Shown: piece after piece, positions 7,418 to 59,699 of the stretch | How the letters are laid out: every line of letters starts with the position of its first letter | Numbering within the stretch: the stretch's first letter is position 1 | Assembly: GCA_026627345.1 (NCBI GenBank) | Contig: JAPNUP010000084.1 | Location: forward strand, 4,325-68,324 | Direction of reading: 5' to 3' | DNA length: 64,000 nt | Source of the DNA: Bacillota bacterium | GTDB lineage: Bacteria; Bacillota; Bacilli; Alicyclobacillales; SLC66 | The notes under the pieces: generated by a model | The model's database searches: none | Told to the model about the DNA's origin: nothing | Seen by the model: the letters and a program-made list of their open reading frames with translations, nothing else | Made by a program: the position numbers and the translations under genes

Positions 7418-8403
7418 TGGCGGACGCACTACTGACTGTCGAGAACCTCCATACGGAGTTTACGCGCCAAGAAGATGTGATCTACGCAGTCAACGGCGTG
7501 AGTTTCAGCGTGGCGCCAGGTGAGACGCTTGGTATCGTCGGAGAGAGTGGCTCAGGAAAGTCTGTATCTGTGCTCTCCGTGCTCGGGCTTTTACGCGGCA
7601 GTGGCAAGGTGACGCAGGGGTCTGCCAAATTCGAAGGTACTGAGTTGCTCAAACTAAAGCGCCGGCAGCTGGAAGATATTCGCGGACGCGACATCGGTGT
7701 GATCTTTCAGGACCCGATGACGAGTCTGAATCCGACCATGCGCATCGGTGATCAGATCATGGAGGGTATGCTCACTCACCATTACGCCAGTCGCAAGGCA
7801 GCCTACAACCGGACAATCGATTTGCTGACAGAAGTGGGTATACCTGAGCCCACCTCGCGTTTTCGCAACTACCCATTCGAATTTTCCGGCGGCATGCGCC
7901 AGCGCGTCATGATCGCGATGGCAATCGCTTGTGAACCGCAGCTGTTGATTGCGGATGAACCCACGACCGCACTGGATGTGACCGTGCAGATGCAGGTGCT
8001 TGCGTTGCTACAAAAGCTGCGTCAAAAGAGTCGCATGAGTGTCGTCATTATCACGCATGACTTTGGGGTGGCTACGAACTTTTGCGACCGCATCATGGTC
8101 ATGTACGCAGGCAAGGTGATGGAGAGCGCGCCGCTCGAAGAGTTTTTGAAACGTCCGGCGCATCCCTATACGATCGGGTTGAAAGCCTCTATTATCGAAG
8201 TCGGCCAAAGCAATCGCGTCTTACAGCCGATACCAGGTACGACACAGCAACTGACAGAGCCGCCTAGGGCTTGTCCGTTTGTGGATCGTTGTGCATTCGC
8301 GCAAGATGCGTGTCATGAAGAGTTGCCGGAACTGCGATCGATAGGATCGGATCACTTGGTTGCGTGTCTGCGCGCAGAGGAGGTTATGAGTCATGCCGGA
8401 TGA
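7417..8403 (+). CDS. ABC transporter ATP-binding protein (OppD/DppD type)
   Basis: Walker A GESGSGKS, signature FSGGMRQR, Walker [13 protein letters not shown], and a C-terminal oligopeptide-type Cys motif. AAAGGAGG upstream. Start 7417 is chosen over the longer track ORF that begins at 7312. Confidence 0.9.
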
Positions 8404-9388: not shown

Positions 9389-10597
9389 GTGCGAGTCGAA
9401 GCATCCATTTTGCGCAAACTCAACGAGCGCCGGGTTCTAAACGCGATTCGGGTGGGGAAAACGGTCTCTCGTGCAGATATTCAACGCAAGTTGAGTATTA
9501 CAATGCCGACTGTGTCAAAAATTGTTGACGAACTGATCACGCAGGGTTGGGTCATGGAAGTAGGCACGGGTGATTTTACACTTGGTCGTCCGCCTGTGAT
9601 GCTGGAGATTAATCCGAGTTCAGCTGTTGCGATTGGTATCGACATTGGACGCTTCTGTATTCGCGTCGTGTCTGTCAACCTGCTTGCGCAGGTTATCGCG
9701 CAAAAAGAGACGAGTGTGGAGGACATTGGCACCGTGGACGAACTGTTGTCTCGTGTTGACCTCATGTTGGTCAGTATGGGTGTAGATCCGTCTGGGGTGC
9801 TTGGCATCGGTATCGCATCGCCTGGGTCGCGCAATCCTCACCCAGACTCGCCCCAGCGGCCTGGGACGCTCGATGAGCATATCGCTCACCGCTGGCATCG
9901 GGCGGCACTCGATGAATACTTTACGCGGCGTTACGGGGTTCCCTCGTGGATGGAAAATGATGCGAACGCTGCGGTGCTCGGTGAGATCTGGTTCGGTTCA
10001 GCACAGTCCTGTAACCATCTCGTCTTCGTCTTTGCAGACGAAGGGCTTGGGGCGGGCATTGCCGTCAATGGTTCGATCTACACAGGTGAAAGTAACGTCG
10101 CAGGTGAGTTTGCACACATGATTGTCAACCTCGATGGCGGTATCCAGTGTGAGTGCAAACGTCCTGGATGTTTAGGCGGTGTGGCGCATTTACGCGGCAT
10201 TCGCGAAGAGCTTCGGCAGTCGGGCATGGATCTTGAGGAGGAACTGTTCTCCGTTTTTGCCCGCGGTGCGAGTGGCCATGAGCCAGAATATTCCGTGATT
10301 TGTCGAGCGGTCGATTATCTGGCGATTGGGATTTTTAATCTGATACAAGTGATTGACCCGAGCCATGTCATCGTCGGTGGCGGTATGTTTCGCTTAGATC
10401 CATTTGTCCTCAAACGTCTGAATGAACGGGTACAAGAGTTGTGCTACCCCAAACGTATCCCCTTGCTCGAGAGTTCCTTTGGTGTAAACGCCGTGGCAGT
10501 AGGTGCGGCAACACTTGTCCTTCAGCACTTATACGATCATACGAAACTTGTGAATCTTACAGTAGAGCGTGTGGACGAGCCGCTGGTGCGGCTGTAG
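9389..10597 (+). CDS. ROK family transcriptional regulator (NagC/XylR-like)
   Basis: N-terminal wHTH (LNERRVLNAIRVGKTVSRADIQRKLSITMPTVSKIVDEL) followed by a ROK sugar-kinase-like body with a CxCGxxGC-type zinc motif (CECKRPGCLG). GTG 9389 follows AAGGGGGTGA. Confidence 0.85.
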   Translation: MRVEASILRKLNERRVLNAIRVGKTVSRADIQRKLSITMPTVSKIVDELITQGWVMEVGTGDFTLGRPPVMLEINPSSAVAIGIDIGRFCIRVVSVNLLAQVIAQKETSVEDIGTVDELLSRVDLMLVSMGVDPSGVLGIGIASPGSRNPHPDSPQRPGTLDEHIAHRWHRAALDEYFTRRYGVPSWMENDANAAVLGEIWFGSAQSCNHLVFVFADEGLGAGIAVNGSIYTGESNVAGEFAHMIVNLDGGIQCECKRPGCLGGVAHLRGIREELRQSGMDLEEELFSVFARGASGHEPEYSVICRAVDYLAIGIFNLIQVIDPSHVIVGGGMFRLDPFVLKRLNERVQELCYPKRIPLLESSFGVNAVAVGAATLVLQHLYDHTKLVNLTVERVDEPLVRL

Positions 10598-10651
10598 GTG
10601 AAATGCCAGGCGGGCCAGCGGCTCGCCTCTTGACTATCAAGGGGGGCTTGT

Positions 10652-11548
10652 ATGAGCACTGTCACTGATGCCGTGGCGTACGCCTCGAACCGTTCGTGGC
10701 GTCGATCGCGTCTGCGACGCGGCTTCGGACGGTTTGCCCGCGGTCCACTTTCTATCATCGGATTGATCTGGATCATTGTGCTGGTTGTCGTGGCGCTGTT
10801 CGCTCCTCAACTAGCCCCGTATCCCGTTGCGGGCGATATTCTCGTCGTCAATGAGGCACCGAGTCTCGCTCACTGGTTTGGGACCAACAACGTCGGTCAA
10901 GACATGCTGACGCTCTGTATGTACGGCGTGCGGTACACGCTGACGATCGCGGCAGGTGCGACGATCCTTTCTTTTTGCATAGGCGTCTTTGTAGGTATGA
11001 TGGCCGGTCTGCAAGGCGGTTGGCTCGATCAGGTGTTGATGCGGTTCACTGATTTTATGTACTCTTTCCCTTCATTTGTGCTGGCGATCACCGTCATCGA
11101 GTTTACAGGTCAAGGGATCGTCTCCGTGATCGTCATGCTCGGCCTCACGCAGTGGGCTGGCTTCGCCAGGTTATCGCGCGGTATGACGCTCACCTTGCGC
11201 AATTCCGAGTTGGTCGAATCGGGACGAGCGATCGGAGCTTCCCGGGCTTTTGTCATTCGCCATTATGTTTTTCCTCATGTATGGAGCAGTATCAGCGTGT
11301 ACACCGCATTTTTTCTAGTGAATATCATCACACAAGACGGCATGCTGGGCCTGTTTTACAATGTGGGGCCGCAACCCCCTAATATTAGCTTTGGCTCGCT
11401 GCTACTGCTCAACACGCCTGATGTGCTCGGGTTTCCTTGGTTACTCACCATGCCCGTTCTCGTTTTTGTGAGCATTCTCGTCTCACTGATCGTCGTGGGT
11501 GAAGGTCTGCAAACGATGCTCAGTCCGAAAGGGTCGGTGAATCTGTGA
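10652..11548 (+). CDS. ABC transporter permease (OppC/DppC type), second set
   Basis: 298 aa, GTNNVGQDMLT motif, multi-TM. AAGGGGGG RBS. Confidence 0.88.
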   Translation: MSTVTDAVAYASNRSWRRSRLRRGFGRFARGPLSIIGLIWIIVLVVVALFAPQLAPYPVAGDILVVNEAPSLAHWFGTNNVGQDMLTLCMYGVRYTLTIAAGATILSFCIGVFVGMMAGLQGGWLDQVLMRFTDFMYSFPSFVLAITVIEFTGQGIVSVIVMLGLTQWAGFARLSRGMTLTLRNSELVESGRAIGASRAFVIRHYVFPHVWSSISVYTAFFLVNIITQDGMLGLFYNVGPQPPNISFGSLLLLNTPDVLGFPWLLTMPVLVFVSILVSLIVVGEGLQTMLSPKGSVNL

Positions 11549-52137: not shown

Positions 52138-52338
52138 ATGCAAGAAGGAATCGTGAAGTGGTTTAACGCCGAGAAGGGCTTTGGTTTCATCGAAGTTCCA
52201 GGTGGCGATGATGTATTTGTACATTACAGCGCAATCATGGGTGAAGGTTACAAATCCCTTGATGAAGGTCAGCGCGTGAGCTTCGAAGTTGTTCGAGGCA
52301 ACCGTGGTCTGCAAGCTGCTAACGTAACTAAACTGTAA
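52138..52338 (+). CDS. cspB: cold-shock protein (CspA/CspB family)
   Basis: [20 protein letters not shown]...DVFVHYSAI (RNP1/RNP2). GGGAGGAAAAG RBS. Confidence 0.95.
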
Positions 52339-52360: not shown

Positions 52361-52393
52361 AGCCCGTATCTGCGCAAGCGGATACGGGCTTTG
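52361..52393 (+). terminator. rho-independent terminator of csp
   Basis: AGCCCGUAUC pairs with GAUACGGGCU, with an inner extension to a GCAA tetraloop, followed by TTT. Confidence 0.8.
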
Positions 52394-52457
52394 GCGTTTC
52401 TTCCTAGAGAGTCGTACAATAGGAATGCAGTACATCATTGTGAAAGAGGGAAATCGG

Positions 52458-53156
52458 ATGAGCATGCAACTCTCGCGCAAGACCATTCCTTACACCCCGG
52501 TCAGCAAGCCGCTGTCAGAAATGACGATCATGATTGTATCGACGGCAGGGACACACTTGAAGTCGCAGGAGCCGTATAACACGAGCGGTGATGCAACTTA
52601 TCGGATCATTCCGGGCGATGTACAGACGGCGGATCTCACCGTGACCCACGGCGCTCCTATCCATGACTACAACTGGGAAGAACCACGCAGGGACCCGAAC
52701 ACCATTTTTCCAATCGATCGTTTGCGCGAGATCGCGGCCCAAGGCATCATCGGTGGGGTCGCCGACAAGCACATCTCGATGATGGGCTATGCGCTTCGGT
52801 TAAATGAGATTAACGCAGTGACTGCACCTGAGATCGCAAAAGAGGTCGATCATTCGCGTGCGGATGCGGTGCTTTTGACCGCTGGCTGACCGCTTTGTCA
52901 CCGAACCGTGGTCACGGTTCAGCGCGCGATTGAAATGGTCGGTATTCCGACGGTTCTGATTACGCTGGATCCACATCAGTCGGGCCTCATGAGGCCATCG
53001 CGAGCGATGTATCCAGAAGGATTTGTATTTGGCCACTCTCTTGGCAAGCCGTTCGATAAAGACACGCAGACAGCCGTACTGCGGGCGGCGCTAACGCGTC
53101 TTGTCACACAAGGGGAGCCTGGAGTGATCGAGACGGTGTCATTTGCTTCGTACTAA
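52458..53156 (+). CDS. short GrdB-family (glycine/sarcosine/betaine reductase selenoprotein B-like) protein, probable selenoprotein with in-frame UGA at 52887-52889
   Basis: Track ORFs 52425-52889 and 52908-53156 share one frame and are separated only by one TGA. Read-through gives ...AVLLTAG-U-PLCHRTVVTVQRAIEMVGIPTVLITL.... The downstream piece has no RBS. A SECIS-like hairpin follows the TGA. ATG 52458 lies 7 nt after AAAGAGGG. Confidence 0.65.
52903..52920 (+). promoter_or_regulatory. candidate bacterial SECIS hairpin
   Basis: GAACCGU (52903-52909) pairs with ACGGUUC (52914-52920). The GGUC apical loop (52910-52913) begins 24 nt from the U of the UGA. Confidence 0.55.
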
Positions 53157-53174
53157 AAGGCATCTGTGCCGGCT

Positions 53175-53218
53175 CTGAGAATCCCGAGGGGCCGCTACGT
53201 GTGCCTCGGGATTCTCAG
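53175..53218. terminator. bidirectional terminator hairpin
   Basis: 15-bp stem: CUGAGAAUCCCGAGG (53175-53189) pairs with CCUCGGGAUUCUCAG (53204-53218). Lies between convergent genes. Confidence 0.7.
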
Positions 53219-53240
53219 GTACATTTGGTGGTTATCGTCG

Positions 53241-53579
53241 TTACAATTCAAGGTCCATGTGTGTTGCGCCATCGTCGGTCGGCTCAAGGTCCGGTTGTGT
53301 ACGAAACCAGATGTTCAAGTCATTGATCCGGCTCGCGTAGTCGTTGATCTGTTCCATCAGAGCAACGGTTTGCTCCCACTCCTCTTCGTGATGCATTGCC
53401 TCTTGAAGAGTGGTAATCTCGGCTTCAAACACGGATATCTGGTGAGGAATCTGACCGCGTTCGATTTCCCAGCGTTCGAGAATCAGGCGCCGCTCGTCCA
53501 GACTGTAGTCCGTCCAATCGCGTGTGAGCACAGGCACGCTAATACCTAGGCGCTCATCTGCTTGAAATACGCTTTCCAT
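53241..53579 (-). CDS. hypothetical acidic coiled-coil protein
   Basis: About 112 aa from ATG 53579 (GGGAGG 8 nt upstream). LILERWEIERGQIP...INDLNIWFR pattern. No family recognised. Confidence 0.55.
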   Translation of the reverse strand: MESVFQADERLGISVPVLTRDWTDYSLDERRLILERWEIERGQIPHQISVFEAEITTLQEAMHHEEEWEQTVALMEQINDYASRINDLNIWFRTQPDLEPTDDGATHMDLEL

Positions 53580-53732
53580 CGCTGTTGCCTCCCGGTCTCG
53601 CTGCACAGTGAGTAGCGATCTGGCTGTGAGGCGATCATTCTGTTGCCTAGTATACAGGACTCGCGCAAACTATGTACACCGGCAAAGCGAGATACAGATG
53701 GTCCAAAACCATACATATAAGGCGGTTTTACG

Positions 53733-54874: not shown

Positions 54875-55081
54875 ATGCAGCCGCTGACAACGAAGGAACT
54901 CAACTACATGTGTGACATGTTGAGTGCCGAGGACTTGCTTATCAAAACTTGTGCCACAGCGACCATGGTGGCTACACAAGGCGACGTCCAGCAGTTTTTG
55001 CATCACGTAGTAGGCGAGCACCAGCGCCGCTACGATGAGATTCTGCGCGTACTTGAACAGCACGAGAGCGTGGCCCACTAA
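54875..55081 (+). CDS. small spore coat-associated protein (CotF/YraD-like partner)
   Basis: 68 aa. AAGGGAGGG RBS. Helical LTTKELNYMCDMLSAEDLLIKT pattern seen in small CotF-like proteins. Sits directly upstream of a CotF-domain gene. Confidence 0.5.
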   Translation: MQPLTTKELNYMCDMLSAEDLLIKTCATATMVATQGDVQQFLHHVVGEHQRRYDEILRVLEQHESVAH

Positions 55082-55111
55082 AACATATCGGGCCAAAAAA
55101 GGGAGATGGGC

Positions 55112-55816
55112 ATGCAAGGTCAACAGATGACAGGTGGCAACCGGATGAACCAAATGAATCAGACGTCATCGGGGACGATGGGAACACTGACTGAGCAAGA
55201 TTTGTTTCACACTATACTCGTGTTGCTCAAACACAATGTACGGGAGTATGCAACAGCCGTCACCGAAGCCAATTGCCCGGTGGTCCGACAAACGATGCAG
55301 CGGATGATGCATGAAACACTGGCGGAACAAGCGGACTGTTACCAAGTCATGGCTCGCCAAGGATGGTACCCACCTGCACCGAGTGCCAACCGTCAAGATG
55401 TGCAAAAGTCGGTCCAACAGCATCGTCAGGGTGCCAATCAGACGGCACAGAGCTTGCAGATGACCGGGATACGTCCTGTGATGGGGCACCAAATGGGCCA
55501 GCCGTCGTGGCAAAACCCACAAGAGTCTCGTAACCAGACTCAGCAGTGGCAAAATTCGCCACAATCCTCGAATCAGTGGCAGTCTACACAGCAACCTTCT
55601 CATCCGCAGTGGCAGAATCAAAGCGCATCGCAGTACGGGCAGTCTCAGTACCAGCCTACTATGCAGTCTGGTCAGTCCGCGCAGTACAGCAACGCAACAT
55701 CGAATGTCAGTCCGACAACGTCGAGTGTTCTTGATTCGGCACTCTCGAGTAGCGTGGCAGATGAAGACGCTTGGCGAAGTTCATCACGCACGTCGCGTGG
55801 TGAAATGACACACTGA
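55112..55816 (+). CDS. spore coat protein F (CotF) family protein with Gln-rich C-terminal tail
   Basis: Coat_F-like core (LTEQDLFHTILVLLKHNVREYATAVTEANCPVVRQTM...). The C-terminal 130 or so aa are Q/S/N/W low complexity. ATG 55112 lies 6 nt after AAGGGAG; ATG 55106 is an alternative. Confidence 0.7.
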   Translation: MQGQQMTGGNRMNQMNQTSSGTMGTLTEQDLFHTILVLLKHNVREYATAVTEANCPVVRQTMQRMMHETLAEQADCYQVMARQGWYPPAPSANRQDVQKSVQQHRQGANQTAQSLQMTGIRPVMGHQMGQPSWQNPQESRNQTQQWQNSPQSSNQWQSTQQPSHPQWQNQSASQYGQSQYQPTMQSGQSAQYSNATSNVSPTTSSVLDSALSSSVADEDAWRSSSRTSRGEMTH

Positions 55817-55888: not shown

Positions 55889-55914
55889 TCAACGCGCCTT
55901 TGTGCCGTTACACT
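55886..55914 (+). promoter_or_regulatory. sigma-A-type promoter candidate for dynA
   Basis: TTGTCA (55886-55891), 17-bp spacer, TACACT (55909-55914). This places the transcription start downstream of the track's GTG 55902. Confidence 0.4.
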
Positions 55915-55949
55915 GTAAGGGTTGTAAACGCAATGGGAGGGGAAAGGCC

Positions 55950-58900
55950 TTGACTGATGGGAGGACGCAGACTGCGCCTGTCGCTTTGTTTGCAAAAGAA
56001 CAAGCCGCTTTGTTACAGCGTCTGGCACACCTCTTTGCCGACGCAGGCGATGCTACGAGAGTGAGAAAACTGGAGACGCTACGTGAGAAATGGGAGCGCA
56101 GTGAAACCGCGATGGTGTTTACTGGGCACTTTTCAGCTGGGAAATCTACATTGATCAATGCACTGCTCAGGCAGGCTGTGTTGCCTGCGAGTCCGCTGCC
56201 TACGAGTGCCAATGCGGTGCGTATCAGCTTCGGTGCGGCGCAAGCCCACGCGCGTATGATGAACGGAGATAGTCTGACACTACCGGATTTGTCTGAAAAC
56301 GCTTTGTCAGAGTTGAAGGAGTGGTGCCGGGCGGGAGACGATGTCGCGAGTGTAGAGATCGCGACGCCGGCTGCCTTGCTGCAAGAAGGACTCGTGCTAT
56401 ACGATACGCCGGGCGTGGACTCTACAGACGAACGTCATGCAGCTCAGACGGATGATGTACTCTTTGCGGCGGATGCCGTGATATTTGTCGCCGACTATCA
56501 TCATGTCATGTCTGATATCAATTTTCACTTTATGAGAAGACTCGTTGACGAAGGCAAACCGATCTGGCTCGTCGTCAGTCAAATGGATAAACATAACGAG
56601 TGGGAAATGCCGCTTGCGACCTTTGAACAGTCCGTACTGGATGCGTTGTCGAGCTGGCAGATCGCCTGCGAACAGGTATCGTTTGTTGCCGCAAAAGAGG
56701 CTTCAGATCCTGGACTTTGCAGCTTGCGCGATAAGCTGCGTGCACAAGCTGTAGCCGATTTGCCAGCGCCTGCGATTACGTCTGCGCTTACGCGGCTATT
56801 GAATGAACACGGACGCTGGCTGAGTGTGCGCGCAGGGGAATCGGATGAACAGATCGAGGCAGCGCGCGCGCTTTTTGCGAAGCGCGAGCAGCAGGCGGCG
56901 ACGCGCGGCGCGCGTGAGGCAGAGCGCTTAACTGCGATAGCTGACTTTGCCGAAGAACTGCGCGCGATCACGACGCAAGCGATTTTGCTACCTTATGAGA
57001 CGACCGAGTTGGCTGTGCTGTACATCGAATCGCTGCATCCACAGTTTCGGGTAGGTTTTTTGTCCTCCGCGAAACGCGTGGCGGCTGTGCGCGAGGAGCG
57101 TCTGAAAACTTTTGCCCAAGCGCTACAAGAACGCACGCATGACCATATCGGGCGGCACTTGCTTCAAGCTCTGTTGCGGACAGCGCGCGCACAAGGCTGG
57201 TCTCTGGACTTTGCGCAAGAGGCGCTGGAGACGGCGTTAGCGCAAGTTGATGAAAGTTTTGTCGCAGCTCAGGTCGCTACCGGAGCGGGACTCGATCGGG
57301 CCTACGGATATGCGTATGCCAAACATGTCGATGAAGCCGTGCGCCAGATCTTTTTGCGGTTTATCAGCGTTGTGGTGGAGGCTCTGCAAAGTGCCGGGTC
57401 CGAGCGTGAATCCGCAGCGGATGAGCTTGCGGTGACGCCTGAACTCGACGCCTTGGCTTCGCGAATACGTTTGCGCGAGTCGCGTCTCGAACATCTGCGC
57501 CTTGAAGCGCAGACTGTTTTCACAAGCGATCTACGGCGAGCCCCGGTGTCTGCGCGCGTAGAGATCAGAGCCATGGCCACAGACGACGAAACGCGGGCGG
57601 GAAATGATCCAAGTCCTAGTCATCGCGTCACCTTGCCTATAGTTGGCAGTTTGGGATCCCCTTTTGCGGCACTCGATCAGGCACTGCCTGATCCCACTCG
57701 CGCCTATTCAGTAGATGCAGTCGCCAGCGAAGCGAGTCTGACATTAAGCACACGGCGTACAGATCTGATCAACCGCCTCCAGATCGCGATCGGCCTTTGT
57801 GACGAGCCTGTGTTGCGGCGTTTTTTGCGCGCGCTGACAGAGCGTTTGACGCGGCTTTTGGAAGAGCAGTACACAGTCGCGCTATTCGGTGCTTTCTCCG
57901 CGGGAAAGTCGACCTTGGTCAATGCACTTTTAGGTGGAGACATTTTGCCGGTATCACCCAATCCGGCGACAGCGGCCATTAGCCGTGTATTGCCGCCTAC
58001 GAAAGACACTCCGCACAAAACGGTTCGGGTGCTGTATAAATCCGCGTCTGATCTTACAGCCGAAGTAGAAGCGGCGTGTACCGCGTTGTCGATCCCGGCC
58101 GTTCAACCGGATGCCTTGTCTACGGCGCTGGCTGCCTTAAAAGACGTGCAAGTAGGCGGGGAGCGCGTAGCGCACCACACTTTTCTCCAAGCGGTCGCGC
58201 GCGGCTGGGATCTGCTCGGGGGGCGCCTAGGTACAGAGGAAACGCTGTTGGCGGACGACTTTGCCGCCGCTGTCGCCACAGAGGAGCGGGCCGCCTTTGC
58301 TGAGCGTATTGATTTGTACTACGCCTCGCCTTTTGCGGAGGCCGGCATCATCCTCGTCGACACCCCTGGTGCAGATTCGATCAATGCCAGACACACAGAC
58401 GTCTCGTTTCGCTATTTGCGCGATGCGGACGCTGTGCTCTTCGTTACCTATTATAATCACGCATTTTCCAAAGCTGATCGCGAATTTCTCGAGCAGGTGG
58501 GACGGGTTAAAGATGCGCTGGCGTACGACTCGTTGCATGTGGTCATCAATGCGATAGACCTCGCGCAAAACGCCGATGAGGTGGCGCAGGTTCAGGCATA
58601 TGTCGTACGCGAACTCGGCCGAGCAGGGGTGCGCGCACCGCGGGTCTATCCGGTCTCGAGCCAACTCGGCGTGCTCGCGCAGCTGCTCGTTGCCACGCCA
58701 AACGAGGAGGCCGTATCGCAGACGATAAGACGTCGCCTGCGGCTGTCTAACGAAGCGACTCTGCCTGCGCCAGACGCGATTTGGCGCATGTCTGGCGTAC
58801 AAGGTCTCGTCGAGGAGGTGCTCGCACATACGCGCGGGCGCTTGCTCTCACAGACCCTATCGGCCGGCGAGGATGAGTTATCGCGGATACGCGAGTATCT

Positions 58901-59699
58901 CGCGAAGCGTCTCGAGGAGCGACGTGTGATGGCAGCCGATGCGAATCGGATGAACGAAGTGTGGAGCGCTGCCTGTGCACAGTGGCAGTCACAGTGGATC
59001 ACACCGTCACAGCAAGAGATTGAGGGGTTACGTCAGGAGATCAGTGAGTTGTTCTATCATATCCATCAACGCTTCACATTCGCCCAAAACGATTTGTTAC
59101 TCAAAGCCTACCATCCTTCGTGGCTGGAAAGCGGTACGACGGATCAAGTCGAACGCTCAGTCGCGGAGTGGTTACGTCTCGTTGGCCTTCACCTAGGCCA
59201 GGAAGCGCGCGCTACCGTCATACGGGTGAACCGCTATGCGCGTGATCTCGCAGCGGCTTGGTGTGCGCGCAGCGCCGATGCACTCGCTCAGTCGCTGCCT
59301 TTCACACCAGCTGCACCACCGCTGTCGGCATCACCCGATCTTGTGCCCGCCATTCCGGCGTTTACGAGCGAAGCACTGCGGGGCCGTATCGCGCAAATGG
59401 TGAAGCGCCACTTTCGGCAAGCAGATCAGTTCTATGAACGGGGCGGCCGTAAGCAATTAGGTGTTGAACTAGAACCTTTGGCAAAGGAATTGGCTCATGA
59501 GTATCTCGACTTTGTGCAGCAAAGTTTTATGGACACCTATGGGCAGTGGCTGAAGAAAGCGTGCGAAGCGTGGCGCGACGCTCAGTCCACGGAGCTCATC
59601 GAGGCGATTGACGCCGAAGTGCAATCACTGCGCGATCCTGAGGTAGCTATTCGTCTCGCGCAAGTGATGGAGAAGTTCCCGGCGGCACAAATCGGCTAA
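55950..59699 (+). CDS. dynA: bacterial dynamin-like protein DynA (two fused dynamin GTPase modules)
   Basis: Two P-loops (GHFSAGKSTLINALL; GAFSAGKSTLVNALLG) and two DTPG motifs (LYDTPGVDS; LVDTPGADS) in about 1249 aa. TTG 55950 follows GGGAGGGGAAAGG. Confidence 0.85.
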   Translation: MTDGRTQTAPVALFAKEQAALLQRLAHLFADAGDATRVRKLETLREKWERSETAMVFTGHFSAGKSTLINALLRQAVLPASPLPTSANAVRISFGAAQAHARMMNGDSLTLPDLSENALSELKEWCRAGDDVASVEIATPAALLQEGLVLYDTPGVDSTDERHAAQTDDVLFAADAVIFVADYHHVMSDINFHFMRRLVDEGKPIWLVVSQMDKHNEWEMPLATFEQSVLDALSSWQIACEQVSFVAAKEASDPGLCSLRDKLRAQAVADLPAPAITSALTRLLNEHGRWLSVRAGESDEQIEAARALFAKREQQAATRGAREAERLTAIADFAEELRAITTQAILLPYETTELAVLYIESLHPQFRVGFLSSAKRVAAVREERLKTFAQALQERTHDHIGRHLLQALLRTARAQGWSLDFAQEALETALAQVDESFVAAQVATGAGLDRAYGYAYAKHVDEAVRQIFLRFISVVVEALQSAGSERESAADELAVTPELDALASRIRLRESRLEHLRLEAQTVFTSDLRRAPVSARVEIRAMATDDETRAGNDPSPSHRVTLPIVGSLGSPFAALDQALPDPTRAYSVDAVASEASLTLSTRRTDLINRLQIAIGLCDEPVLRRFLRALTERLTRLLEEQYTVALFGAFSAGKSTLVNALLGGDILPVSPNPATAAISRVLPPTKDTPHKTVRVLYKSASDLTAEVEAACTALSIPAVQPDALSTALAALKDVQVGGERVAHHTFLQAVARGWDLLGGRLGTEETLLADDFAAAVATEERAAFAERIDLYYASPFAEAGIILVDTPGADSINARHTDVSFRYLRDADAVLFVTYYNHAFSKADREFLEQVGRVKDALAYDSLHVVINAIDLAQNADEVAQVQAYVVRELGRAGVRAPRVYPVSSQLGVLAQLLVATPNEEAVSQTIRRRLRLSNEATLPAPDAIWRMSGVQGLVEEVLAHTRGRLLSQTLSAGEDELSRIREYLAKRLEERRVMAADANRMNEVWSAACAQWQSQWITPSQQEIEGLRQEISELFYHIHQRFTFAQNDLLLKAYHPSWLESGTTDQVERSVAEWLRLVGLHLGQEARATVIRVNRYARDLAAAWCARSADALAQSLPFTPAAPPLSASPDLVPAIPAFTSEALRGRIAQMVKRHFRQADQFYERGGRKQLGVELEPLAKELAHEYLDFVQQSFMDTYGQWLKKACEAWRDAQSTELIEAIDAEVQSLRDPEVAIRLAQVMEKFPAAQIG

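Follow-up and report, generated by a model that had tools for sequence, protein, structure and literature searches.

We analysed a 64-kb stretch of DNA from a Bacillota contig (hereafter the window) and concentrated on positions 52458-53156 of its + strand, where two same-frame open reading frames (ORFs) flank a TGA. Our analysis indicates that this region very probably constitutes one monocistronic gene encoding a 232-residue, stand-alone PrdB-like protein of the GRDB superfamily, whose UGA at codon 144 would be read as selenocysteine (Sec) by means of a hairpin lying just downstream. In all likelihood the gene encodes a selenoprotein, because its homologues have cysteine at this column, TGA is kept in 66 of 66 split loci, the part downstream is under selection, the hairpin covaries, and the hairpin is lost in Cys-type genes. 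From these sequence comparisons we infer Sec insertion itself. A first-pass annotation, made from the letters of the window, had proposed that the UGA encodes Sec in a UxxC centre, and every comparative test available supported that proposal.

The ORFs at 52425-52889 and 52908-53156 share one frame on the + strand and are parted by a single TGA, as had been claimed at first pass and as the ORF list and translation confirmed. Translating 52458-53156 gave 232 codons with one internal stop, codon 144 (...ADAVLLTAG-stop-PLCHRTVVTVQRAIEM...), which is a TGA at 52887-52889; the residues around it in the fused product read ...RADAVLLTAG-stop-PLCHRTVVTVQRAIEMVGIPTVLITLDPHQ.... The continuity of the fused 232-residue product, also part of the first-pass annotation, was thereby confirmed. 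The true start is most likely the ATG at 52458, because AGAGGG, a Shine-Dalgarno-like motif read from the sequence (52445..52450, + strand), lies 7 nt 5′ of it and because the public 143-residue fragment P0001 begins there. P0001 is 100% identical to coding part 1 (52458..52886, + strand), which translates into residues 1-143, ends in ...ADAVLLTAG and is usually annotated as 'GRDB family protein'. The in-frame UGA (52887..52889, + strand) is the putative Sec144 of a U-P-L-C-H-R motif, and coding part 2 (52890..53156, + strand), with residues 145-232 and the TAA stop at 53154-53156, is supported by conserved translation and by its ratio of nonsynonymous to synonymous substitutions (dN/dS).

To evaluate the UGA column, we assembled a comparison set from the loci of database fragments and from a scan, with a clade alignment, of one genome per GTDB species, which yielded 58 loci. 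The 66 loci found split at the column are these 58 together with eight loci from contigs, L001-L004 and L006-L009 (L008 and L016 being one contig). Protein searching returned relatives of two classes. Some, for instance those from Ktedonobacteria, are full-length, at about 225-285 aa; the rest are fragments 139-165 aa long, in most cases 141-143 aa with 65-100% identity, and come from Ferroacidibacillus, Alicyclobacillaceae, Effusibacillus and Caldalkalibacillus. Five aligned fragments stop at ...LTAG. In the alignment, the UGA column was Cys in 22 of 22 full-length homologues, with the motif LTAG-C-PLCHR, which settled in favour of the first-pass annotation its suggestion that homologues be inspected for Cys or Sec at this position. 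The codon was TGA in the window and in all 66 split loci, with no instance of TAA, TAG or a sense codon, and in all orthologues the frame past the TGA ran on to the conserved C-terminus. Carriers in the Bacillota were Alicyclobacillaceae, Effusibacillus, Ammoniphilus, Clostridia and many Bacillaceae (Neobacillus, Mesobacillus, Litchfieldia, Halalkalibacter, Evansella, Anaerobacillus arseniciselenatis and Calidifontibacillus); among the others were Dehalococcoidia, SAR324, Gamma- and Deltaproteobacteria, Nitrospinota, Tectomicrobia and Binataceae metagenome-assembled genomes (MAGs). The base after the UGA was C, from a CCN proline codon, in all 56 aligned sequences, which gives UGA-C (52887-52890 in the window).

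Over the 84 codons that follow the TGA, the Nei-Gojobori proportions of nonsynonymous and synonymous differences were 0.13-0.27 (pN) and 0.66-0.82 (pS). Taking unsaturated dS only, dN/dS was 0.07-0.14 after the TGA (84 codons) versus 0.05-0.13 before it (60 codons). Since the downstream values were about the same as the upstream ones, the C-terminal part must be translated. These results bear directly on the possibility of a pseudogene, that is, of a PrdB-like gene killed by a nonsense mutation from TGC or TGT to TGA. A Cys codon is indeed one mutation away from TGA, Cys-type homologues exist, and gene callers and NCBI give fragments only. Against this, the same TGA is kept across many phyla in every locus split at the column, the frame downstream stays open under purifying selection (dN/dS ~0.1), and a covarying hairpin follows the TGA in TGA-type genes only. 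The sign that the first-pass annotation had named as pointing to a nonsense mutation, a sense codon in close relatives with the hairpin unconserved, was not seen in the split loci. TGA conservation, downstream selection and the hairpin together effectively refute the pseudogene, which we regard as extremely improbable.

The hairpin (52903..52920, + strand; GAACCGU-GGUC-ACGGUUC) has a 7-bp stem and a GGUC loop. Its loop G, at 52910, is the 24th nucleotide when the U of the UGA is counted as 1, exactly as described at first pass. Among 33 Bacillales-type sequences, the seven stem pairs were formed in 231 of 231 cells, and RNAalifold run on these 33 orthologues independently gave the same helix. 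The stem is encoded by the codons for R-T-V-V-T-V, which leave synonymous sites on both sides in two pairs only. Both of them covaried: pair 21-36 was C-G (24 sequences), A-U (6), G-U (2) or U-A (1), and pair 24-33 was U-A (22) or C-G (11). This answered the call for a covariation analysis made at first pass. Of 500 shuffles, 0 reached the observed pairing or covariation score; slid registers were 12-62% paired. Furthermore, six third-codon positions inside the hairpin were invariant among the 22 Bacillaceae/Ammoniphilus orthologues, and the neighbouring third positions varied. In the 23 sequences of a distant clade we found a different helix, 100% paired, with three covarying pairs, a CGUGA loop and a register 5 nt nearer the UGA than the Bacillales one. 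As for Cys-type genes, that of L068 encodes the same T-V-V-T-V peptide, but its pair 21-36 is mismatched (C·A), its loop reads CGUC and its minimum free energy (MFE) fold is devoid of the hairpin; those of L070 and L071 have no hairpin.

Some properties of the hairpin weigh against our interpretation. Folded as a single sequence, it was not above shuffles (z = -0.6 and +0.45), and a slightly wider fold preferred a competing structure. In addition, the T-V-V-T-V codons fix five of the seven stem pairs, leaving covariation possible at two only. Because the single-sequence fold is indistinguishable from shuffles, it is entirely from comparison that the hairpin draws its significance. We took as the mark of a bacterial Sec insertion sequence (SECIS) a structurally conserved stem-loop that directly follows the UGA and has a G in its apical loop, at a distance of roughly 16-37 nt; here the loop lies 23 nt after the U, and the structure is conserved, with two and three covarying pairs in the two clades. 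Judged by these alignments, the hairpin is a conserved RNA feature tied to the TGA and placed as expected of a bacterial SECIS. The first-pass annotation had also likened its loop to that of the E. coli fdhF SECIS. The likeness holds for a stem-loop directly 3′ of the UGA within the coding sequence and for a G/U apical loop some 22-27 nt after the UGA. The GGUC loop itself, however, is restricted to the Alicyclobacillaceae/Effusibacillus type, being replaced by AGUU in Bacillaceae/Ammoniphilus and by CGUGA in the distant clade, where the register differs as well, and the window hairpin has no sequence homology with bacterial SECIS elements. G-U was present in every loop, yet the same bases are positions 1-2 of a Val codon. 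At gathering thresholds, Rfam detected no tRNA-Sec, SECIS or other family in the window, with only noise at E values up to 10 near the hairpin.

A further point against Sec decoding is that neither selA, selB, selD nor a gene for tRNA-Sec lies in the 64-kb window. ARAGORN found 0 tRNAs in the window and no tRNA-Sec in the window or in 60 loci, and the window was likewise negative in a tblastn search with an E. coli SelD sequence and in screens for the SelA pyridoxal phosphate site and the SelB G1 motif. The sole match of these SelD, SelA and SelB probes was one selD, located beside the PrdB-like gene in L060, a Gammaproteobacteria MAG. This 739-aa ORF (L060 7564-9783, - strand) is divergent from the PrdB-like selenoprotein gene, about 0.1-0.6 kb upstream of it, and its C-terminal half is SelD-like, 337 aa of it aligning with E. 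coli SelD at 35% identity; from its sequence, it may be a SelD fusion protein. Indirect support for Sec use comes from other carriers. F. organovorans (Ferroacidibacillus), which is syntenic with the window, has another split gene, for a peroxiredoxin (P0148), which is a classic type of selenoprotein. Locus L041 is a scaffold of strain ZYK with a U-PLCHRTVVTV orthologue, and we matched it by strain name to 'Bacillus sp. ZYK', which is listed as SelD+ SelA+ SelB+ with 10 selenoproteins (PMC5029168 supplement). The same supplement also names 'Alicyclobacillus pohliae' and Caldalkalibacillus thermarum as Sec users.

We then weighed whether the UGA could be a real stop, giving a 143-residue protein and a separate 82-residue protein initiated at GTG 52908, or could be read through with a standard amino acid. 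No Sec machinery was seen in the 64-kb window, and a C directly after UGA makes for leaky termination, both of which would suit this alternative. The GTG, however, has no purine-rich Shine-Dalgarno on reading the sequence before it, as stated at first pass, and since the corresponding codon is GTA, a non-start, in the 22 Bacillaceae/Ammoniphilus orthologues, it is not a conserved start. The Cys-type homologues are all single polypeptides with a catalytic-looking C-P-L-C across the junction. Neither the stop nor the readthrough version sits well with the position and G/U loop of the hairpin, which fit the bacterial SECIS rules, with the presence of SelA, SelB and SelD in the orthologue-bearing strain, or with the neighbouring peroxiredoxin of related genomes being a recognised selenoprotein type (PMC9312934). 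We therefore consider a genuine stop or a standard readthrough very unlikely.

Having argued for Sec at codon 144, we turned to the family to which the protein belongs. Pfam GRDB (PF07355) matched with 35.3 bits, for a threshold of 22, over residues 8-142 and model positions 212-346 of 347, the C-terminal third. The best NCBIfam model was PrdB (TIGR04483), with 173.8 bits and E = 3.8e-51, below the equivalog cutoff of 300. A PrdA-linked control from a Clostridia MAG (L044) reached 329.6 bits with this model, and stand-alone homologues scored 127-197 (Neobacillus 154, the Pseudomonadota MAG of L048 127, Dehalococcoidia 195, Cys forms 158-197). The Grd models TIGR01917, NF040794, NF040795 and TIGR01918 gave 42.8, 51.4, 45.3 and 47.2 bits, for respective cutoffs of 602, 800, 775 and 65.45, and were matched at positions ~215-416 only, the protein having 232 aa versus about 430 aa for the two-domain type. 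What GrdB, GrdF and GrdH, the substrate-specific B proteins of the glycine, sarcosine and betaine reductases, have in common with it is the C-terminal domain (Pfam GRDB positions 212-346) and a Sec-x-x-Cys centre, whereas GrdB has an extra N-terminal half and the partners GrdA, GrdE, GrdC, GrdD and thioredoxin, and no grd or trx gene lies near the window gene.

The closer likeness is to PrdB, the 26-kDa selenoprotein subunit of D-proline reductase in Acetoanaerobium sticklandii and Clostridioides difficile, which has the same length, fold family and LTAG-U-xxC-HR motif. U144-P-L-C147 falls where PrdB has its U-x-x-C, near residue 150, and U144 is equivalent to the Sec of C. difficile PrdB, U151 (PMC11229817). 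The window protein is 42-43% identical to the Clostridia MAG PrdB of L043 and L044. In L044 (77-2068) the frame stays open from a PrdA-like sequence (...AMTCVAPS...) into PrdB, for about 677 codons including the Sec TGA, which suggests that prdA and prdB are fused or overlapping there. True PrdB is encoded in the prd operon and works only in complex with pyruvoyl-PrdA, whereas no prdA, prdH or prdC lies near the window gene.

Could the window protein nevertheless be a genuine PrdB of a D-proline or other Stickland-type reductase, with prdA-like partners encoded elsewhere and a Sec that cleaves the C-N bond of a pyruvoyl-bound substrate? That PrdB is the best curated model, that the length class, Sec position and U-x-x-C-H-R motif are those of the Clostridia PrdB in L043 and L044, and that JGI labels homologues 'D-proline reductase PrdB' all speak in favour of it. 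The score, however, falls short of the cutoff together with those of the stand-alone homologues and well away from that of PrdA-linked L044, and the neighbourhoods offer no partner: no PrdA, PrdH, PrdC or Grd gene lies within ~8 kb of the window gene, and at the other loci the 7-10 kb around the stand-alone genes held no recognisable prd or grd gene. Nor is a thioredoxin gene found near the window gene. Moreover, the hosts are Alicyclobacillaceae, Bacillaceae and marine Proteobacteria, not Stickland fermenters. A Stickland-type role thus appears unlikely. The first-pass view that this is no canonical glycine or proline reductase was upheld by scores below cutoff on every Grd and Prd NCBIfam model and by the absence of prd, grd and trx neighbours, and the data support the conclusion that the window protein is neither a canonical proline or glycine reductase nor a member of the PrdB or GrdB families, its only functional parallel to them being the Sec-x-x-Cys centre.

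Across loci, the gene context of the stand-alone genes was highly variable, and the distant-clade loci L045-L067 had no conserved neighbours. Clustering of flanking ORFs revealed one recurrent neighbour, a peroxiredoxin (Prx) of about 166 aa. Its gene directly precedes the PrdB-like one in 27 species of Bacillales, namely Alicyclobacillus sp. SP_1, two Effusibacillus, two Ammoniphilus and 22 Bacillaceae-type genomes. The Sec-Prx gene occupies 9343-9831 in L007, L008 and L016, 9403-9909 in L009, and ~9460-9985 in the 20.7-kb loci L017-L041, with a location elsewhere in L019, L026 and L037. The gap to the PrdB-like gene ranges from ~20 nt in Neobacillus to ~170 nt in Alicyclobacillus sp. SP_1. 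In this Prx, too, the reading frame contains a TGA, here at the peroxidatic position (FYPLDWTPV-U-GAQMPSYEDDL). The Prx has no conserved second Cys and would therefore need an external resolving thiol or selenol. The two genes thus form a two-selenoprotein cassette, whose wider context differs between genomes. The 'orphan' status assigned at first pass accordingly stands for this window but not for most other Bacillales, where the gene is paired with the Sec-Prx gene. In Bacillus sp. V3-13 (L019, ~7600-8360), a degraded, frameshifted second Prx/PrdB-like pair lies ~4.5 kb downstream of the intact one.

The pairing extends beyond Bacillales and to Cys-type genes. In L068 (5410-6732) a Sec-Prx gene is followed by a Cys-type PrdB-like gene; on a metagenomic contig (L076, 4001-5250) a Cys-type Prx orthologue with 55% identity adjoins a Cys-type PrdB-like gene; and in Tengunoibacter (L075, 346-4720) a Cys-type Prx orthologue with 51% identity lies 3.2 kb from one. 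Bacillales have the U/U state of the pair (Prx/PrdB-like), L068 has U/C and Chloroflexota have C/C.

Several observations argue against a functional link of this kind. No Prx was found within 10 kb in the clade of the window (window, L003 and L010-L015), and the linkage was absent from all 23 distant-clade loci. The 27 adjacent cases come from related Bacillales and may represent one ancestral cassette. Homologues of this Prx also occur fused to glutaredoxin, and glutaredoxin, Prx and PrdB-like genes follow one another in L007, so that glutaredoxin, rather than the PrdB-like protein, may reduce the Prx. Two Cys-type loci are flanked differently, by a rhodanese/metallo-beta-lactamase fusion together with a FUR-family gene in L070 and by a CDO-like protein in L071. 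In L007 the gene row is a FUR-family regulator, glutaredoxin, Prx and the PrdB-like gene, and the contexts of L007, L070 and L071 are redox or sulfur flavoured. Counting in favour of the link, F. organovorans, a syntenic relative of the window, retains both the Prx and the PrdB-like gene, though at separate loci. On Ferroacidibacillus-type contigs (L072-L074, 9818-10318) a split Sec-Prx (57 aa + 105 aa) stands apart from the PrdB-like gene, with a formate-dehydrogenase-like molybdopterin protein ~8 kb and molybdenum-cofactor genes ~3-6 kb away.

With these points in mind, we propose only tentatively, from gene neighbourhoods, that the PrdB-like protein may act in the Prx pathway. Somewhat more speculative is the general idea that stand-alone PrdB-like proteins are distinct U/C-x-x-C selenol-thiol oxidoreductases that partner a dedicated 1-Sec/1-Cys Prx, rather than amino-acid reductase subunits; they would form a two-selenoprotein peroxide relay in aerobic Bacillales, with a Cys/Cys version in Chloroflexota. 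In such a relay, the PrdB-like protein would resolve the selenenic acid of the Prx and hand the oxidising equivalents to the cellular thiol system.

For a structural view, we built an AlphaFold2 model of the Cys homologue P0002, which is 63% identical to the window protein. It had an alpha/beta fold, with a predicted local distance difference test (pLDDT) of 92.8 and a predicted template modelling score (pTM) of 0.91. The C/U-x-x-C motif, whose C/U is residue 145 in P0002, was placed between a strand (138-142) and the N-terminus of a helix (146-161), and this predicted junction is the usual geometry of redox-active CxxC pairs. A PDB sequence search gave no match, and a PDB fold search returned at best E = 5e-3 and a template modelling score (TM) of ~0.3 with generic alpha/beta folds, which gives no functional transfer. 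From the model and the motif we infer a redox chemistry for the U-x-x-C centre that could proceed as follows. Codon 144 would be decoded as Sec in a SelB-dependent manner, aided by the hairpin at 52903-52920, which would present its G/U-containing apical loop, ~23 nt downstream, to SelB. The selenol would attack an oxidised or electrophilic partner, Cys147 would resolve the adduct by forming an intramolecular Se-S bond, which would then be reduced again by a cellular thiol system. The partner would be other than PrdA-bound proline, and its likeliest context may be peroxiredoxin-linked thiol/peroxide defence, because the gene is tied genomically to the 1-Sec/1-Cys Prx subfamily in Bacillales and Chloroflexota.

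The surroundings of the gene are consistent, as sequence patterns, with a monocistronic unit framed by hairpins and preceded by a promoter-like site. Upstream lies the csp cold-shock ORF (52138-52338, Pfam CSD), followed by its terminator (52361..52390, + strand), which shields the selenoprotein gene from upstream transcription. The 13-bp stem of this terminator runs into a T-rich tail; its MFE is -29.6 kcal/mol (z = -6.4), a stability that 0 of 200 shuffles attained. The promoter-like TTGGCG-18 nt-TACAAT (52391..52420, + strand) scored 9/12 in a consensus scan, a pattern match only, and lies 38 nt 5′ of the start codon. Just 3′ of the stop codon, between convergent genes, a 15-bp perfect hairpin (53175..53218, + strand) with only a weak T tract is the probable terminator of the gene; the region 53157-53232 had an MFE of -40 kcal/mol (z = -4.8), with 0 of 200 shuffles equally stable. 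The strength of both hairpins agrees with the monocistronic arrangement put forward at first pass, with the weak T run of the second as its one qualification.

Directly downstream is a convergent 121-aa ORF (53241-53606, - strand) without a Pfam match. An ORF of about 113-116 aa is its counterpart in position only, just after the PrdB-like gene, in L010, L014 and L015. Within about 6-8 kb, the neighbours are GcpE, a GDSL lipase, YjzC, Fe-ADH, a YheCD ATP-grasp protein, CSD, a 112-aa unknown protein, pseudouridine synthase, CotF, a dynamin-like GTPase, a globin and a thioesterase, which are unrelated housekeeping or sporulation genes. GcpE, YjzC, Fe-ADH, YheCD, CSD and, further on, CotF and the dynamin-like GTPase are in synteny with Ferroacidibacillus organovorans. 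The dynamin-like gene (55902-59699, + strand) encodes a 1265-aa protein with a pair of dynamin-type GTPase domains, Pfam Dynamin_N having matched twice in the corresponding contig. It is preceded by genes for a 68-aa protein and a Q/S-rich Coat_F spore-coat protein (54875-55816, + strand), and the same trio follows the PrdB-like region in Ferroacidibacillus too, which indicates a spore-forming host. No other pair of same-frame ORFs bridged by TGA in the window was convincing as a selenoprotein gene.

The first-pass annotation was right to see a Sec gene of the GRDB family, but the family is not an obscure one. It has been catalogued since 2005 as 'proline reductase PrdB', a UxxC family with pfam07355 homology (PMC1088965, PMC2398784, PMC5029168), in the Sargasso Sea (2005) and Global Ocean Sampling (GOS, 2008) surveys of Zhang, Gladyshev and co-workers and by Peng et al. 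in 2016, its definition being given in Table 2 of PMC2398784. With 42 sequences from the Sargasso Sea and 235 from GOS, it ranked among the selenoprotein families of highest abundance in those surveys (PMC1088965, PMC2398784); it was found in 110 genomes in 2016 (PMC5029168) and has been reported in Anaeromyxobacter and Geobacter. The window protein carries both features by which these surveys define the family, pfam07355 homology and a Sec-containing UxxC. Family members have about 230-290 aa, Sec in a U-x-x-C and Cys homologues, and they are widespread outside Stickland fermenters, including in Proteobacteria and aerobic marine communities; the proteins of L045-L067 are of this type. The catalogues name them PrdB without separating them from authentic PrdB, whereas here the PrdB cutoff is missed and PrdA is absent. 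The window gene is thus a known family in a new host. The literature we searched held no description of the separation of the stand-alone clade from true PrdB and no mention of an Alicyclobacillaceae/Bacillaceae subgroup or of the Sec-Prx pairing, and searches on 'PrdB-like', 'GrdB-like' and Ferroacidibacillus with selenocysteine found nothing relevant.

As anticipated at first pass, gene callers split the gene: in dozens of Bacillales genomes, NCBI, JGI and Logan calls consist of a 141-143-aa 'GRDB family' fragment and a hypothetical protein. Annotation of the two adjacent selenoprotein genes was inconsistent in Effusibacillus lacus (L009), where the Sec-Prx (9403-9909) was called whole across its TGA, with 168 residues, and the PrdB-like gene (10001-10693) as fragments of 141 aa and 79 aa. 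A dedicated model for the stand-alone subfamily would mend this persistent annotation error. Most family members outside Clostridia are without PrdA, and the recurrent pairing with a Sec/Cys Prx provides a concrete, testable hypothesis for the role of this large family. The pair is also a case of two adjacent genes switching between Sec and Cys independently, and the Prx pairing is, in our view, the part worth pursuing.

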